Assembly: GCF_030384885.1 (NCBI RefSeq)
Contig: NZ_CP128613.1
DNA length: 64,000 nucleotides
Direction: 5' to 3' (one strand)
From: Escherichia coli
GTDB lineage: Bacteria > Pseudomonadota > Gammaproteobacteria > Enterobacterales > Enterobacteriaceae
Shown: positions 3,917 to 59,297 of the stretch, in pieces
Layout: each line of letters begins with the position of its first letter
Numbering within the stretch: position 1 is the first letter of the stretch
Notes under the pieces: generated by a model
Database searches by the model: none
What the model was told of the DNA's origin: nothing
What the model saw: only the letters and a program-made list of their open reading frames with translations
Made by a program: the position numbers and the translations under genes

Positions 3917-4774
3917 ATGTTGTACCTGACGAAAATACGCAATGCAGAAAGTGAATTTACCGAGAACGAGCAAAAAATAGCTGACTTTCTGCAGGCTAAA
4001 GTGAGTGAGCTGAAATCCGTCTCTTCGCGCAAGATGGCGAAACAGCTCGGCATCAGCCAGTCGAGTATTGTGAAGTTTGCCCAAAAGCTCGGCGCGCAAG
4101 GATTTACTGAATTGCGTATGGCGTTAATTGGCGAATACAGTGCCAGCCGGGAGAAAACGAATGCCACGGCGCTGCACTTGCACAGTTCGATTACCAGTGA
4201 CGATTCGCTGGAAGTGATTGCCCGTAAACTGAATCGCGAAAAAGAGCTGGCACTGGAGCAAACCTGCGCCTTACTCGATTACGCGCGGCTGCAAAAAATC
4301 ATTGAGGTCATCAGTAAAGCGCCGTTTATCCAGATAACAGGCCTGGGCGGGTCGGCGCTGGTGGGGCGCGATCTTTCATTCAAACTGATGAAAATTGGTT
4401 ATCGCGTGGCCTGTGAAGCCGACACGCACGTACAAGCTACCGTTTCCCAGGCGTTGAAAAAAGGTGATGTACAAATCGCTATCTCTTACAGCGGCAGTAA
4501 AAAAGAGATTTTGCTATGCGCCGAGGCAGCGCGAAAGCAGGGGGCAACGGTGATTGCCATTACTTCACTGACTGACTCTCCGCTGCGGCGGTTGGCACAT
4601 TTCACCCTCGATACCGTTTCTGGTGAAACCGAATGGCGTAGCTCGTCGATGTCCACCCGCACGGCACAAAATTCGGTTACCGATTTACTGTTTGTTGGGC
4701 TGGTACAACTTAATGATGTCGAGTCATTGAAAATGATTGAGCGCAGCAGTGAGCTAACGCAACGCCTGAAATGA
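3917..4774 (+). CDS. murR: RpiR/SIS-family transcriptional repressor of murQP
   Basis: Track ORF 3662..4774 trimmed to ATG at 3917 ([14 protein letters not shown]...), giving 285 aa; divergent from murQ. Confidence 0.8.
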
Positions 4775-4902: not shown

Positions 4903-5694
4903 ATGGGTAAACTCACGGGCAAGACAGCACTGATTACGGGCGCATTGCAGGGAATTGGCGAAGGAATTGCCAGAACTTTTGCGCGTCATGGCGCAAACCT
5001 AATCTTGCTGGATATCTCCCCTGAGATCGAAAAGCTGGCGGACGAACTGTGTGGTCGTGGTCATCGCTGTACGGCGGTTGTCGCCGATGTGCGTGACCCG
5101 ACGTCGGTAGCCGCAGCTATCAAGCGCGCAAAGGAAAAAGAAGGGCGCATTGATATCCTGGTGAATAACGCAGGCGTTTGTCGTCTGGGCAGTTTCCTCG
5201 ATATGAGCGATGAAGATCGCGATTTCCATATTGATATCAATATAAAAGGCGTATGGAACGTCACGAAGGCGGTGCTGCCGGAGATGATTGCCCGCAAAGA
5301 TGGTCGCATTGTGATGATGTCTTCGGTCACTGGCGATATGGTGGCCGATCCGGGCGAAACGGCGTATGCCTTAACGAAAGCGGCGATTGTTGGCCTGACT
5401 AAATCGCTGGCGGTGGAGTACGCGCAGTCTGGTATTCGCGTTAACGCAATCTGCCCTGGATACGTTCGCACGCCAATGGCTGAAAGCATTGCCCGCCAGT
5501 CGAATCCGGAAGATCCAGAATCGGTGCTGACTGAAATGGCGAAAGCAATCCCGCTGCGTCGCCTCGCCGATCCGCTGGAAGTCGGCGAACTGGCGGCCTT
5601 CCTCGCATCCGATGAATCCAGCTATTTAACCGGTACACAGAATGTGATTGATGGCGGCAGCACACTGCCGGAGACGGTTAGCGTCGGCATCTGA
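4903..5694 (+). CDS. ucpA: Short-chain dehydrogenase/reductase (SDR) oxidoreductase
   Basis: Track ORF trimmed to ATG at 4903 preceded by aaggagag RBS; TGxxxGxG Rossmann motif (TGALQGIG); 263 aa. Confidence 0.75.
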   Translation: MGKLTGKTALITGALQGIGEGIARTFARHGANLILLDISPEIEKLADELCGRGHRCTAVVADVRDPTSVAAAIKRAKEKEGRIDILVNNAGVCRLGSFLDMSDEDRDFHIDINIKGVWNVTKAVLPEMIARKDGRIVMMSSVTGDMVADPGETAYALTKAAIVGLTKSLAVEYAQSGIRVNAICPGYVRTPMAESIARQSNPEDPESVLTEMAKAIPLRRLADPLEVGELAAFLASDESSYLTGTQNVIDGGSTLPETVSVGI

Positions 5695-5997
5695 TTCACC
5701 TCTGTTTCCTCCCTGCATGTGTGGGGAGGATTTCGTCTTGAACTAAGTTCACCAGGCTATTTTATTTGTCATTTTGGCCCCGGGCAGTGCTCGAAATCCT
5801 CACGTACTATGTGTACGCTCCGGTTTCTCCGCGCTGTTCGTGTCCAAACTGACTGCAACAATTACGCCTGTTGAACCAAGTTCTTATTCCCTTTTCAACT
5901 TCCAAATCACCAAACGGTATATAAAACCGTTACTCCTTTCACGTCCGTTATAAATATGATGACTAATAGAAAGTCATTTAATTAATAAGGGTGCGCA

Positions 5998-7014
5998 ATG
6001 GCCGTTAACTTACTGAAAAAGAACTCACTCGCGCTGGTCGCTTCTCTGCTGCTGGCGGGCCATGTACAGGCAACGGAACTGCTGAACAGTTCTTATGACG
6101 TCTCCCGCGAGCTCTTTGCCGCCCTGAATACCCCGTTTGAGCAACAATGGGCGAAAGATAACGGTGGCGACAAGCTAACGATTAAACAATCTCATGCCGG
6201 GTCATCAAAACAGGCGCTGGCGATTTTGCAGGGCTTAAAAGCAGACGTTGTCACTTATAACCAGGTGACCGACGTGCAGATCCTGCATGATAAAGGCAAG
6301 CTGATCCCGGCTGACTGGCAGTCGCGCCTGCCGAATAACAGCTCGCCGTTTTACTCCACCATGGGCTTCCTGGTGCGAAAGGGCAACCCGAAGAATATCC
6401 ATGACTGGAACGATCTGGTGCGCTCCGACGTGAAGCTGATTTTCCCGAACCCAAAAACCTCCGGTAACGCGCGTTATACCTATCTGGCGGCATGGGGTGC
6501 AGCGGATAAAGCCGACGGTGGCGACAAAGCCAAAACCGAACAGTTTATGACTCAGTTCCTGAAAAACGTGGAAGTGTTCGATACCGGCGGTCGTGGCGCG
6601 ACCACTACTTTTGCCGAGCGCGGGCTGGGCGATGTGCTGATTAGCTTCGAATCGGAAGTGAACAACATCCGCAAGCAGTATGAAGCGCAGGGCTTTGAAG
6701 TGGTGATTCCGAAAACCAACATTCTGGCGGAATTCCCGGTAGCGTGGGTCGATAAAAACGTGCAGGCCAACGGTACGGAAAAAGCGGCAAAAGCTTACCT
6801 GAACTGGCTCTACAGCCCACAGGCGCAAACGATCATTACCGATTATTACTACCGCGTGAATAACCCGGAAGTCATGGACAAACTGAAAGACAAATTCCCG
6901 CAGACCGAGCTGTTTCGCGTGGAAGATAAATTTGGCTCCTGGCCGGAAGTGATGAAAACCCACTTCAACAGCGGCGGCGAGTTAGACAAGCTGTTAGCGG
7001 CGGGGCGTAACTAA
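5998..7014 (+). CDS. cysP: Thiosulfate/sulfate ABC transporter periplasmic binding protein
   Basis: 338-aa ORF with signal peptide; first gene of the cysPUWA(M) cluster. Confidence 0.9.
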
Positions 7015-12181: not shown

Positions 12182-12210
12182 AAAAATGGCGCCGATGGGC
12201 GCCATTTTTC
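12182..12210. terminator. Bidirectional rho-independent terminator between pdxK and crr
   Basis: aaaaaa-tggcgcc-gat-gggcgcca-ttttt hairpin flanked by A- and T-tracts. Confidence 0.6.
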
Positions 12211-30575: not shown

Positions 30576-30745
30576 TCTCTGCCTTTTGCCGCTTTTGTAA
30601 TACAGTCTACATCCTGGCAGTGCCGTGTGGTGAATGCATCACTGACTGAAAAAACAGCAACAGGCTGGCCCCTGTTTGCTTCGCGATGCGAATAAACTTA
30701 TTATTTGTGTGCCTGAAAACCCCGATCAGTGAGAGTAGTGTACTC

Positions 30746-32935
30746 ATGTTTGTGGAGCATAACCTGATAAAAAATATCAAGATATTCACACTAGCGTTTA
30801 CGCTCACCGTGGTACTTATTCAGCTATCCCGTTTTATTTCGCCACTTGCCGTTATCCATTCCAGTTATATCTTTTTGGCGTGGATGCCACTGTGCGTAAT
30901 GCTGGCAATCTTGTTTATCTTTGGCTGGCGCGGTGTCGTTCCTGTTTTAGGCGGGATGTTTTGCACCAATCTGTGGAATTTTCATCTCTCTTTTTTACAG
31001 AACTCCGTCATGCTCGGCAGCCAGACGTTTGCAGTCCTGTGTGCCTGTGCAATATTACGCTGGCAATTGGGAACGCGTTGGCGTTATGGTTTGACCAGCC
31101 GATACGTCTGGCAACGTCTCTTCTGGCTTGGTTTGGTGGCACCGATTGGCATCAAATGCAGCATGTATCTTGTGGGGAATTTCTTTGATTTTCCGCTAAA
31201 GATATCTACCTTTTTCGGCGATGCGGATGCCATTTTCACGGTCGTTGATTTGCTAAGCCTTTTCACCGCAGTGCTGATTTACAACATGCTGTTTTACTAT
31301 CTCACCCGCATGATTGTAAGTCCCCACTTTGCGCAGATCCTGTGGCGCAGGGATATCGCTCCGTCGTTGAGCAAAGAGAAACGCGTATTTACCTTAAGCT
31401 GGCTGGCAGCTCTTAGCGTGCTGCTACTTCTGATGTGTACACCGTATGAAAATGACTTCATTGCCGGTTACCTGGTACCTGTTTTCTTTATCATCTTTAC
31501 CCTCGGGGTCGGTAAGCTTCGCTATCCGTTTTTAAATCTCACCTGGGCTGTTTCAACGCTTTGCCTTCTGAATTACAACCAGAACTTTTTGCAAGGGGTA
31601 CAAACCGAATATTCGCTGGCATTTATTCTCGCGGTGCTGATTTCCTTTAGTGTTTGCCTGCTCTATATGGTGCGCATTTATCATCGTAGTGAATGGCTTA
31701 ACCGACGCTGGCATTTGCAGGCGCTGACCGATCCGTTAACGCTCTTACCCAACTTTCGCGCGTTGGAACAAGCACCAGAGCAAGAGGCTGGCAAGAGTTT
31801 TTGCTGCCTGCGTATTGATAACCTTGAGTTTATGAGTCGTCATTACGGGTTAATGATGCGCGTTCACTGTATCCGCTCAATTTACCGTACGTTAATGCCG
31901 CTGATGCAGGAAAACGAAAAGTTGTATCAATTGCCGGGGAGTGAACTGCTATTAGTACTGAGCGGGCCGGAAACGGAAGGGCGACTCCAGCATATGGTTA
32001 ACATCCTGAATAGTCGGCAAATTCACTGGAACAATACCGGGCTGGATATGGGCTATGGTGCTGCCTGGGGGCGTTTTGATGGAAATCAGGAAACCCTGCA
32101 ACCCTTGTTGGGGCAGTTAAGCTGGCTGGCGGAGCAATCCTGCGCACATCATCATGTGCTGGCGCTGGATAGCAGAGAGGAGATGGTTTCCGGGCAGACC
32201 ACTAAACAGGTGCTATTGCTGAATACCATTCGCACGGCGTTAGATCAGGGGGATTTGCTGCTCTACGCCCAGCCAATTCGCAACAAAGAGGGTGAAGGTT
32301 ATGATGAGATCCTCGCGCGACTGAAATATGACGGCGGCATTATGACCCCGGATAAGTTTCTGCCCCTTATTGCTCAGTTTAACCTTAGCGCGCGTTTTGA
32401 TTTGCAAGTGCTGGAATCCCTGTTGAAGTGGCTGGCAACACACCCCTGCGACAAGAAAGGTCCGCGCTTTTCAGTCAATTTAATGCCGCTCACGCTGCTG
32501 CAAAAAAATATTGCCGGGCGGATTATTCGTCTGTTTAAGCGTTATCACATCTCCCCGCAGGCGGTCATTCTTGAGATCACCGAGGAACAGGCGTTTTCTA
32601 ACGCAGAAAGCAGTATGTACAACATCGAGCAGCTGCATAAGTTTGGTTTCCGGATTGCGATTGATGATTTTGGCACCGGCTATGCCAACTACGAACGGCT
32701 AAAGCGTTTGCAGGCTGATATCATTAAAATTGATGGCGTCTTTGTGAAAGATATCGTCACGAACACGCTGGATGCGATGATTGTGAGATCAATTACCGAT
32801 CTGGCGAAAGCGAAGTCATTGAGTGTGGTCGCGGAGTTTGTCGAGACGCCACAGCAGCAGGCGCTATTGCATAAGCTCGGGGTGCAATATCTGCAAGGGT
32901 ATTTGATTGGTCGCCCTCAGCCATTAGCTGATTAA
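30746..32935 (+). CDS. pdeA: c-di-GMP phosphodiesterase with degenerate GGDEF and EAL domains and N-terminal MASE membrane domain
   Basis: Track ORF trimmed to MFVEHNLIKNI... giving 729 aa; multi-TM N-terminus and EAL-type C-terminus. Confidence 0.75.
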   Translation: MFVEHNLIKNIKIFTLAFTLTVVLIQLSRFISPLAVIHSSYIFLAWMPLCVMLAILFIFGWRGVVPVLGGMFCTNLWNFHLSFLQNSVMLGSQTFAVLCACAILRWQLGTRWRYGLTSRYVWQRLFWLGLVAPIGIKCSMYLVGNFFDFPLKISTFFGDADAIFTVVDLLSLFTAVLIYNMLFYYLTRMIVSPHFAQILWRRDIAPSLSKEKRVFTLSWLAALSVLLLLMCTPYENDFIAGYLVPVFFIIFTLGVGKLRYPFLNLTWAVSTLCLLNYNQNFLQGVQTEYSLAFILAVLISFSVCLLYMVRIYHRSEWLNRRWHLQALTDPLTLLPNFRALEQAPEQEAGKSFCCLRIDNLEFMSRHYGLMMRVHCIRSIYRTLMPLMQENEKLYQLPGSELLLVLSGPETEGRLQHMVNILNSRQIHWNNTGLDMGYGAAWGRFDGNQETLQPLLGQLSWLAEQSCAHHHVLALDSREEMVSGQTTKQVLLLNTIRTALDQGDLLLYAQPIRNKEGEGYDEILARLKYDGGIMTPDKFLPLIAQFNLSARFDLQVLESLLKWLATHPCDKKGPRFSVNLMPLTLLQKNIAGRIIRLFKRYHISPQAVILEITEEQAFSNAESSMYNIEQLHKFGFRIAIDDFGTGYANYERLKRLQADIIKIDGVFVKDIVTNTLDAMIVRSITDLAKAKSLSVVAEFVETPQQQALLHKLGVQYLQGYLIGRPQPLAD

Positions 32936-32996
32936 CAGGCGTAAAAAAAGCAGGGAATTATCCCCGGCTTTTGTGGCTGATGACAAACAGAAAAAT

Positions 32997-33025
32997 GCCT
33001 GATGCGCTACGCTTATCAGGCCTAC
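32997..33025. repeat. REP element
   Basis: gcctgatgcgctacgcttatcaggcctac, classic REP palindrome, flanked on both sides by hairpin-T-tract terminators. Confidence 0.55.
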
Positions 33026-33037
33026 ATGGAATTGAAG

Positions 33038-33055
33038 CCGGGGAATTATCCCCGG
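33038..33055. other. Palindrome ccGGGGaattatCCCCgg matching the GGGG(N6)CCCC target preference of IS186; unoccupied here
   Basis: Sequence read directly; a degenerate copy GGG-aattat-CCCC lies at about 32953..32965. Confidence 0.5.
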
Positions 33056-33077
33056 CTTTTTAATTAATGAATTGGAC

Positions 33078-34280
33078 TTACAGCACCAGTGCTGCGATTG
33101 ACGCAGACAGCACACTCACCAGAGTAGAGCCGTAAACCAGTTTCAGACCGAAGCGAGAAACCACGTTACCTTGCTCTTCATTCAGGCCTTTAACCGCACC
33201 GGCGATAATCCCGATAGAAGAGAAGTTAGCGAAGGAAACCAGGAACACGGAGATGATGCCTTCAGCACGCGGAGAGAGCGTGGAAGCGATTTTCTGCAGA
33301 TCCATCATCGCAACGAACTCGTTGGAAACCAGTTTGGTCGCCATAATACTGCCCACCTGCAGTGCTTCACTGGAAGGAACACCCATCACCCACGCAACCG
33401 GATAGAAGATGTAGCCCAGGATGCCCTGGAAGGAGATGCTGTAGCCAAACCAGCCAGTCACAGTGGCAAACAGTGCGTTCAGCGCAGCGATCAGGGCGAT
33501 AAAGCCGATCAGCATCGCGGCAACGATAATGGCAACTTTGAAACCTGCCAGAATGTATTCACCCAGCATTTCGAAGAAGCTCTGACCTTCGTGCAGGTTG
33601 GACATCTGAATGTTTTCTTCACTGGCATCAACACGGTAAGGGTTGATCAGCGACAGCACGATAAAGGTGCTGAACATGTTCAGTACCAGCGCCGCAACGA
33701 CGTATTTCGGCTCCAGCATCGTCATGTATGCACCAACGATGGACATCGACACGGTGGACATCGCCGTAGCTGCCATGGTGTACATACGATTGCGGGAGAT
33801 TTTGCCGAGGATATCTTTATAGGCAATAAAGTTTTCAGACTGACCCAGAATCAGAGAGCTGACGGCGTTGAAGGATTCCAGTTTGCCCATACCGTTGACT
33901 TTGGAGAGCAGGAAACCAATTGCGCGGATAATCACCGGCAACACGCGAATGTGCTGGAGAATACCGATCAGCGCAGAGATAAAGACGATTGGGCACAGCA
34001 CTTTCAGGAAGAAGAATGCCAGGCCTTGATCATTCATGCTACCAAAGACGAAGTTAGTCCCTTCGTTGGCAAATCCGAGCAGTTTCTCAAACATTTCGGA
34101 GAAGCCTTTCACGAAGCCCAAACCAACGTCGGAGTTCAGGAAGAACCACGCCAGTAACACTTCGATAACAAGCAGTTGAATAACATAACGGATACGAATT
34201 TTTTTGCGGTCGCTGCTTACCAGCAGTGCGAGAATCGCAACAACGGCAAGTGCCAGTACAAAATGAAGGACGCGGTCCAT
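33078..34280 (-). CDS. nupC: Nucleoside:H+ symporter (CNT family)
   Basis: Track ORF trimmed to [20 protein letters not shown]... giving 400 aa. Confidence 0.9.
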
Positions 34281-34552
34281 ATTTGCTCCAAATATGAGGC
34301 AGGTTAAATTTCCGTGCACATTCTATGTAACATGGTTAAGGAAAACGAGATCTGACACACACTATAATGACGTCCTGTGACAAGCTTCAAAAATAGTGAG
34401 CTGTCATACATTTCTGCTATGTTGTGTATGGAAGCTGAAAGTTATGTAAATGTGCTAACATTAAACATAATCACAACATTCAAGTCATCAATCTTTTCGT
34501 CGTCATAATTCTGGTCTATCAAAGAAATCATCACAATCCACTTAAATGAATT

Positions 34553-34575
34553 TGATAATCATTCTCGTTTGTCAT
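34553..34575. promoter_or_regulatory. Fur-box-like sequence in the mntH promoter
   Basis: tgataatcattctcgtttgtcat resembles the GATAATGATAATCATTATC Fur consensus. Confidence 0.4.
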
Positions 34576-34581
34576 AGCATG

Positions 34582-34604
34582 AAACATAGCAAAGGCTATG
34601 TTTT
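34582..34604. promoter_or_regulatory. MntR operator-like palindrome
   Basis: aaacatagc-aaag-gctatgtttt inverted repeat 12 nt upstream of the mntH start codon. Confidence 0.55.
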
Positions 34605-34606
34605 AG

Positions 34607-35854
<1,248 letters not shown>

Positions 35855-58151: not shown

Positions 58152-59297
58152 ATGACCAATAATGAATGCAAAGGGCCGTTTGAAGGCTTATTAGTTATCG
58201 ATATGACGCATGTCCTTAATGGGCCTTTCGGAACTCAACTTCTTTGTAATATGGGCGCAAGGGTAATTAAAGTTGAGCCGCCAGGTCATGGTGATGATAC
58301 CCGCACATTTGGTCCCTATGTGGATGGACAGTCACTCTATTACAGTTTTATTAATCATGGCAAAGAGAGTGTGGTTCTTGATTTAAAGAATGATCACGAT
58401 AAAAGCATATTTATAAATATGCTTAAACAAGCGGATGTATTAGCTGAGAATTTTCGCCCAGGTACAATGGAAAAACTGGGGTTTTCATGGGAAACGCTAC
58501 AAGAAATCAACCCGCGTCTCATCTATGCTTCATCGTCAGGTTTTGGGCATACTGGCCCGCTAAAAGATGCTCCTGCCTACGATACCATCATTCAGGCAAT
58601 GAGCGGGATAATGATGGAAACGGGATACCCTGATGCTCCGCCTGTGCGCGTGGGTACCTCTCTTGCGGATTTATGTGGCGGTGTCTATTTATTCAGTGGA
58701 ATCGTGAGTGCGCTTTATGGCCGCGAAAAAAGCCAGCGAGGGGCGCATGTCGATATCGCGATGTTTGATGCCACTCTGAGTTTTCTGGAGCATGGACTGA
58801 TGGCATATATCGCGACAGGGAAGTCACCACAACGTCTGGGAAATCGTCACCCCTACATGGCACCTTTTGATGTTTTCGATACTCAGGATAAACCAATTAC
58901 GATTTGTTGTGGTAATGACAAGCTTTTTTCTGCGTTATGCCAGGCACTGGATCTGACGGAACTTGTTGATGATCCCCGATTTATCAGCAATATTTTACGC
59001 GTACAAAACCAGGCTATTCTTAAACAATATATTGAGCGGACGTTAAAAACGCAGGCAGCTGAAGTTTGGTTAGCCAGAATACATGAAGTTGGTGTACCCG
59101 TAGCGCCGTTATTAAGTGTGGCTGAGGCCATTAATTTGCCACAAACTCAGGCGAGAAATATGTTGATTGAAGCCGGGGGAATAATGATGCCGGGTAATCC
59201 GATAAAAATCAGCGGCTGCGCGGACCCGCATGTTATGCCGGGAGCGGCAACGCTCGACCAGCATGGGGAACAAATTCGCCAGGAATTCTCATCGTAA
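58152..59297 (+). CDS. yfdE: Acetyl-CoA:oxalate CoA-transferase (family III)
   Basis: Track ORF trimmed to MTNNECKGPFEGLLVIDMTHVLNGPFG... giving 381 aa; paralogous to frc. Confidence 0.8.
   Translation: MTNNECKGPFEGLLVIDMTHVLNGPFGTQLLCNMGARVIKVEPPGHGDDTRTFGPYVDGQSLYYSFINHGKESVVLDLKNDHDKSIFINMLKQADVLAENFRPGTMEKLGFSWETLQEINPRLIYASSSGFGHTGPLKDAPAYDTIIQAMSGIMMETGYPDAPPVRVGTSLADLCGGVYLFSGIVSALYGREKSQRGAHVDIAMFDATLSFLEHGLMAYIATGKSPQRLGNRHPYMAPFDVFDTQDKPITICCGNDKLFSALCQALDLTELVDDPRFISNILRVQNQAILKQYIERTLKTQAAEVWLARIHEVGVPVAPLLSVAEAINLPQTQARNMLIEAGGIMMPGNPIKISGCADPHVMPGAATLDQHGEQIRQEFSS

Follow-up and report, generated by a model that had tools for sequence, protein, structure and literature searches.

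Repression of the Escherichia coli mntH gene by both Fe2+-Fur and Mn2+-MntR was reportedly described by Patzer and Hantke in 2001, and motifs for OxyR, Fur, and MntR are said to have been recognized by Kehres et al. in 2002 at the mntH promoter of Salmonella enterica. The dual metal control of this gene is therefore already known, and nothing in the locus described here is new. The mntH promoter is a textbook case of the integration of two metal signals and a peroxide signal, with little discovery value; its practical value is that of a positive control, as a reader given only the sequence placed the two operators within a few bases, and simple matrices built from other members of the two regulons recover the Fur and MntR sites as the top matches in 64 kb. 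Reviews and a RegulonDB curation paper (citing Patzer and Hantke 2001, Kehres 2002, and Waters 2011) state that Fur and MntR repress mntH independently of each other and that OxyR activates it.

The closest described MntR operators, those of mntS/rybA, mntP, and dps, match the mntH operator in their half-site ([A/G]A[C/T]ATAGC) and in the length of their spacer (4 nt), and the mntH site is the sole perfect palindrome among them. According to the literature, MntR represses mntH but activates mntP, which has two MntR sites far upstream. In the K-12 genome, these two MntR-type sites are 40 bp apart and precede a long leader, at a distance of approximately 360 to 420 nt from the mntP ATG (positions 4267 to 4326 of the K-12 segment), a placement that is consistent with MntR acting there as an activator and not as a repressor. 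The classical Fur boxes, such as those of fhuA, fepA, cirA, and ryhB, represent the same 19-bp motif that is found at mntH, where the Fur site overlaps core promoter elements. In contrast to the iron-uptake promoters, the Fur box of mntH controls a manganese importer and is combined with a site for a second metalloregulator. Finally, the Mn2+ riboswitch proposed for Salmonella (Shi 2014) makes an RNA stem out of CAUAGC and GCUAUG, which are also part of the MntR operator.

The window, a stretch of 64,000 nt from E. coli, carries mntH, encoding an NRAMP-family Mn2+/H+ importer, at positions 34616 to 35854 on the plus strand; its neighbors are pdeA (30686 to 32935, plus strand) and nupC (33078 to 34280, minus strand), as well as ypeC and yfeO, both on the minus strand. 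The gene assignment made in the initial annotation is borne out by a score of 622.8 bits (cut-off, 430) against the NCBIfam entry NF001923, “Mn(2+) uptake NRAMP transporter MntH,” and the RefSeq annotation of strain 2013C-4282 and of K-12 agrees with it. The nupC-mntH intergenic region (34320 to 34615) shows 100% identity to that of strain 2013C-4282 and is found in 5,424 of the 5,426 complete E. coli genomes. The cognate regulator gene, mntR, is present in 5,421 of these 5,426 genomes and lies outside the 64-kb window. This is the same locus as the K-12 mntH promoter, with identical Fur box, −35 and −10 hexamers, palindrome, and Shine-Dalgarno sequence and with strain-level polymorphisms only: between positions 34546 and 34640, it differs from K-12 MG1655 solely by a T/G substitution at 34572, within the promoter spacer, and by a synonymous ACT/ACG change in the second codon of mntH. 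The Shine-Dalgarno sequence AGAGG, read directly at 34605 to 34609 on the plus strand, is located 6 nt 5′ of the mntH ATG, and its GAGG is kept in the alignment of 80 species. An orthologous layout, CTTGATAATCATTATC followed by TAGCAT and then by AAACATAGCAAAGGCTATGTTT, is found in S. enterica subsp. arizonae and subsp. diarizonae. The Salmonella Fur box is slightly nearer to the consensus (ATTATC versus ATTCTC in E. coli), and divergence from the E. coli sequence is seen upstream of the OxyR core. Taken together, the region is almost certainly the E. coli mntH regulatory region, in which a sigma-70 promoter is bracketed by two predicted operators for metal-dependent repressors. This reading draws on the positions, scores, and conservation of the motifs and on the palindrome motif that is common to other promoters of the MntR regulon; the regulation by Fur, MntR, and OxyR is that of the literature.

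The core promoter detected by a promoter scan consists of a −35 hexamer, TTGATA, at 34552 to 34557 and a −10 hexamer, TAGCAT, at 34575 to 34580, both on the plus strand and separated by a 17-nt spacer in this strain; the −35 hexamer lies inside the predicted Fur operator. In Shimada et al. 2014 (PMC3946193), the entry for mntH gives the same combination, TTGATA-17-TAGCAT, as its promoter, within a SELEX peak of the RpoD holoenzyme. Relatives of the locus were collected by scanning representative genomes with the MntH protein, which yielded 80 loci with protein identities of 89% or more, distributed over Escherichia, Citrobacter, Salmonella, Enterobacter, Klebsiella, Raoultella, Kluyvera, Buttiauxella, Leclercia, Atlantibacter, and other genera. 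TTGATA is invariant in all 82 aligned sequences, followed by a spacer of 16 or 17 nt. The −10 hexamer has the form TA[G/A][C/T/A][A/T/C]T (TAGCAT, TAGCTT, TAATAT, TAACAT, TAGTTT, or TAGCCT); its T1, A2, and T6 are fixed while positions 3 to 5 drift, a pattern characteristic of −10 elements. Two additional E. coli alleles are 97% and 90% identical over positions 34545 to 34615; all differences downstream of the Fur cluster fall within 34567 to 34581, one of them at position 3 of the −10 hexamer, and the Fur core, the −35 hexamer, the palindrome, and the Shine-Dalgarno sequence are unchanged. With this 71-nt query, approximately 1,000 of 5,385 genomes fall into the band of 90 to 95% identity, and one of these approximately 1,000 was inspected.

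A search of the window with the classical 19-mer Fur consensus, allowing up to 3 mismatches, returned no match because the site carries 4 mismatches (direct reading gives 15 of 19 positions at 34548 to 34566). Therefore, a matrix was learned de novo by an expectation-maximization motif search, with no motif supplied, from 15 promoter regions of established Fur targets in K-12 (fepA-fes, fepD-entS, fepB-entC, fhuA, fecA, fecI, cirA, fiu, fhuE, exbB, tonB, ryhB, fhuF, bfd, and sufA), with mntH excluded. The resulting consensus, AATGATAATCATTTTCATT (21.3 bits), is the canonical Fur box, and the training sites score from 17.6 to 28.5 bits. When both strands of the window are scanned with this matrix, the best-scoring of the 127,964 positions is 34551 to 34569 on the plus strand (24.9 bits; TTTGATAATCATTCTCGTT), a sequence nearly identical to the fhuA site TATAATAATCATTCTCGTT, and the second is 34545 to 34563 on the minus strand (17.2 bits); the next match in the window scores 12.9 bits. 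In 100 Markov-1 random sequences of 64 kb, the maximum averages 14.1 bits and never exceeds 21.7 bits, so that none of the 100 reaches 24.9. The predicted Fur operator thus comprises two overlapping 19-bp sites, offset by 6 bp, at 34545 to 34569. Its span equals that of the mntH cluster as recorded in Chen et al. 2007 (PMC2189734), namely, two sites over 25 bp with 19.9 bits at −56. A 7-1-7 Fur unit, TGATAATCATTCTCG, can be recognized with 2 mismatches at 34553 to 34567. The Fur-box-like element that the initial annotation had proposed for 34553 to 34575 is therefore present as the top match of the window, with coordinates that had been shifted downstream by approximately 6 to 8 nt; positions 34570 to 34575 belong to the nonconserved spacer, except for the last, which opens the −10 hexamer.

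The second operator is a perfect palindrome, AAACATAGC-AAAG-GCTATGTTT, detected by a repeat finder and by matrix at 34582 to 34603. Its arms (34582 to 34590 and 34595 to 34603) are 9 nt each, 100% complementary, and separated by a 4-nt spacer; it starts 1 nt past the −10 hexamer TAGCAT, and its end at 34603 is 12 nt short of the mntH ATG. The palindrome had initially been described as near-perfect at 34582 to 34604, which includes one extra T, and as ending 12 nt before the ATG; the latter is right as the offset from 34604 to 34616 but not as the gap, which comprises 11 intervening nucleotides. The perfection of the repeat was rejected as proof of its significance, as 8 perfect 9-N4-9 inverted repeats occur in the window, against approximately 0.35 expected; the others that were inspected are G+C-rich and terminator-like.

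What distinguishes this palindrome is its match to the operators of other MntR targets. The motif AACATAGC-N4-GCTATGTT has a single perfect match in the 64 kb. In 18 kb of the K-12 genome around known MntR targets, the mntH-derived motif, with up to 3 mismatches, has 4 matches (approximately 0.08 expected), and these are confined to the region in front of dps, the rybA/mntS 5′ end (where the mntS site and the annotated 5′ end of rybA overlap), and the region upstream of mntP, which contains two of them. To avoid circularity, the upstream regions of dps, mntS, and mntP from K-12 were also compared with each other with no motif given, and their best shared 20-mers were the ATAGC-N4-GCTAT elements, matching at 15 to 17 of 20 positions. 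A symmetrized matrix trained only on the four dps, mntS, and mntP sites, mntH being excluded, assigns 28.6 bits to the mntH palindrome, equal to the best of its training sites (23.8 to 28.6 bits); the next match in the window scores 12.5 bits, 16 bits lower, and the random maximum is 19.5 bits. On formal scoring, the palindrome thus fits the known MntR sites. A full-text literature search with the palindrome sequence returned no match.

Conservation among the 80 Enterobacteriaceae genomes follows the two operators. It amounts to 1.92 bits per column in the palindrome, 1.75 in the Fur cluster, and 1.68 in the −10 hexamer, compared with 1.51 in the first ten codons of mntH, 0.86 in the stretch between the Fur cluster and the −10 hexamer, and 0.33 in the DNA further upstream. 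The Fur and MntR boxes are thus phylogenetic footprints across these genomes, with flanks that are saturated with changes. The palindrome core ACATAGCAAAGGCTAT is essentially invariant, the sole change being one in the spacer in one genome: the ACATAGC...GCTAT arms are the same in 82 of 82 sequences, and the AAAG spacer (34591 to 34594) is the same in 81 of 82. By contrast, the spacers of the MntR sites of dps, mntS, and mntP differ (ACCG, ACAG, CAAA, and TTAG). The invariance of AAAG is not obviously explained by MntR binding alone and may reflect a constraint on the initially transcribed sequence.

Directly upstream of the −35 hexamer, at 34505 to 34541 on the plus strand, there is an OxyR-like array, ATAA-N7-CTAT-N7-ATCA-N7-CCAC. 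It matches 13 of the 20 specified consensus positions and is tied within the top 14 of the approximately 64,000 positions of the window, a match that is weak by sequence alone. However, its core, CTATCAnAGAAATCA, is conserved in the 80 species at 1.09 bits per column, versus 0.33 further upstream. Activation of mntH by OxyR is stated in reviews and in a RegulonDB curation paper, and this array is likely to be the site of activation by H2O2.

These elements suggest the following mechanism. When iron is replete, Fe2+-Fur bound at the two overlapping sites (34545 to 34569) would overlie the −35 hexamer together with the adjoining 12 nt of the spacer and would thereby exclude RNA polymerase (promoter occlusion). 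When manganese is replete, a dimer of the DtxR-family regulator Mn2+-MntR would occupy the palindrome at 34582 to 34603, which would include the transcription start, placed at approximately 34587 from the hexamers by the usual 7-nt rule, and reach approximately +17, and would block open-complex formation or promoter escape; the steric details of both steps are ones that we infer. The OxyR-like site, abutting the −35 hexamer, would account for the reported induction by peroxide through class-I-like activation by oxidized OxyR. The manganese importer would then be made only when iron and manganese are both low or under H2O2 stress. The initial reading of dual repression by Fur and MntR agrees with the top-ranking sites of both matrices, with the conservation in 80 species, and with the literature; of the wider promoter picture, it had both operators and lacked the OxyR-like site, the core hexamers, and the published RNA-level claim.

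The promoter region is overlapped by a small open reading frame homologous to ypeD, at 34546 to 34623 on the plus strand, which covers the Fur box (with its ATG inside), the −10 hexamer, the MntR palindrome, and the mntH start. In K-12, ypeD (b4819) starts 70 nt upstream of mntH, overlaps the mntH start, and has 29 codons; in the window it has only 25, since the ypeD frame gains a TAA from the ACG-to-ACT change that is synonymous in mntH codon 2. The ypeD ATG lies upstream of the predicted mntH transcription start, and its translation therefore implies an unmapped upstream start. An alternative promoter from the promoter scan, ATCACA-18-GATAAT, was weighed as a possible origin of a longer leader and discarded, as its start would still be downstream of the ypeD ATG; conservation is uninformative on GATAAT (34554 to 34559) as a −10 hexamer because it lies inside the invariant Fur box. 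In strain 2013C-4282, PGAP has annotated 34579 to 34623 (plus strand) as a 14-codon “hypothetical protein,” which is the ypeD frame without its N-terminal part; its ATG falls partly within the −10 hexamer, and the annotation is probably an artifact of the ypeD frame.

In a model reportedly put forward by Shi, Zhao, and Kong in 2014, GCUAUG pairs alternately with duplicated copies of CAUAGC. Applied to the window, the palindrome would act mainly as RNA transcribed from an upstream start, forming a terminator-like hairpin in the mntH 5′ untranslated region that serves as a Mn2+-sensing OFF riboswitch, with GCUAUG at 34595 to 34600 pairing alternatively with CAUAGC at 34573 to 34578 and at 34585 to 34590. 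The duplication of CATAGC is indeed seen by direct reading, and the fully transcribed 25-nt hairpin (−9.4 kcal/mol; z-score, −5.6) is followed by UUUU. Ribosome profiling of ypeD, with its start at 34546, implies transcripts that span the whole palindrome, and some longer mntH transcripts probably exist. Accounts of Shi, Zhao, and Kong 2014 in reviews mention a “terminator-like structure in the mntH 5′ UTR,” a Mn2+ OFF riboswitch in Salmonella that is conserved in E. coli, and residual repression by Mn in a ΔmntR strain. However, the 80-genome alignment contains no compensatory changes, either in the stem or in the pairing of the upstream copy with GCUAUG. In 47 of 65 distinct sequences, a C·A mismatch replaces the C34585-G34600 pair, and in 11 the pair of A34583 is broken. 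The G-to-A change that breaks the C-G pair produces ATATAGC, a half-site that occurs in the mntS and mntP MntR sites, and is therefore of a kind that a protein site would tolerate and an RNA stem would not. The upstream CATAGC copy is kept as a TAnnnT −10 hexamer and not as CATAGC. The stem is A/U-rich, with a U-tract of 4 nt in E. coli that is shorter in most genera, and a terminator scan of the region found no terminator. An Rfam search at a permissive threshold found no family, only chance-level snoRNA and sRNA matches with E values above 1. Moreover, a transcript starting at approximately 34587 retains only a 4-bp stem (z = +1.45). The riboswitch model operates at the RNA level and requires an upstream start, and the comparative data do not support it. 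As judged from the alignment, an RNA mechanism at this palindrome is unsupported, and it is unlikely to be the main role of the element, for which repression by MntR bound to DNA is the preferred reading. The published mntH “riboswitch” should be viewed with caution, since stem pairs are lost to natural variation with no compensating change, and yet the variants stay within the repertoire of MntR half-sites.

The same 22 nt might also act twice, as the MntR operator in DNA and as an RNA hairpin in longer transcripts, through termination or through translational coupling of ypeD and mntH. Such a dual role, which we consider a long shot, would, if true, help to explain both the invariance of AAAG and the left arm (81 to 82 of 82 sequences) and the initiation of ribosomes within the Fur box, at 34546. 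As the RNA half has been published (Shi 2014), novelty would be limited to the coupling with ypeD and the constraint on the spacer.

It is very improbable that the AT-rich upstream element is kept solely as a −35 hexamer plus spacer and not as a Fur site. The invariant TTGATA within it is a −35 hexamer, and resemblance to a Fur box is common in AT-rich promoter DNA; however, the conserved stretch is well longer than the hexamer (little or no change is seen in CTTGATAATCATTCTC), 24.9 bits falls within the range of the training sites and exceeds the maximum of each of the 100 random sequences, and a second site at a 6-bp offset is typical of Fur clusters. In addition, mntH promoter-lacZ fusions depend on Fur, according to the literature.

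Finally, the idea that the conserved block is constrained by the coding of YpeD at 34546 to 34623 and not by the operators is scarcely credible: ypeD is annotated in K-12 and, in Stringer et al. 2021, is detected by Ribo-RET and Ribo-Api profiling and aligned with Salmonella and Citrobacter sequences, but about half of the 82 sequences have a broken or shifted frame (3 Escherichia genomes have a stop after 8 codons), the alternation between 16- and 17-nt promoter spacers shifts it between genera, the change that shortens it in the window is silent in mntH, and conservation tracks the geometry of the palindrome and the hexamers, not the codon positions. Given the broken frames, the apparent conservation of the YpeD amino acid sequence is probably a by-product of the conservation of the predicted operators.

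Several additional features were observed in the window. In K-12, IS186C sits between the 3′ end of nupC and pdeA; it is absent from the present strain, where the gap (32936 to 33077) is only 142 bp, compared with positions 5274 to 6618 of the K-12 segment. This 142-bp gap contains a perfect G+C-rich 9-N4-9 repeat at 33036 to 33057 (AGCCGGGGAATTATCCCCGGCT) with the look of a bidirectional terminator. On the nupC side of the nupC-mntH intergenic region, positions 34399 to 34436 carry an imperfect inverted repeat, AGCTGTCATACA and TGTATGGAAGCT, with arms that are 83% complementary and 14 nt apart. It is close to the nupC promoter-like hexamers TTGAAG-18-TATAGT and may be linked to the known control of nupC by CRP and CytR. 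Six further perfect 9-N4-9 repeats are found at 12185, 15140, 16283, 38877, 50288, and 58403. Several of these are G+C-rich and presumably represent terminator stems; the repeat at 58403 (AAGCATATTTATAAATATGCTT), which is AT-rich, is a possible binding site for a protein.
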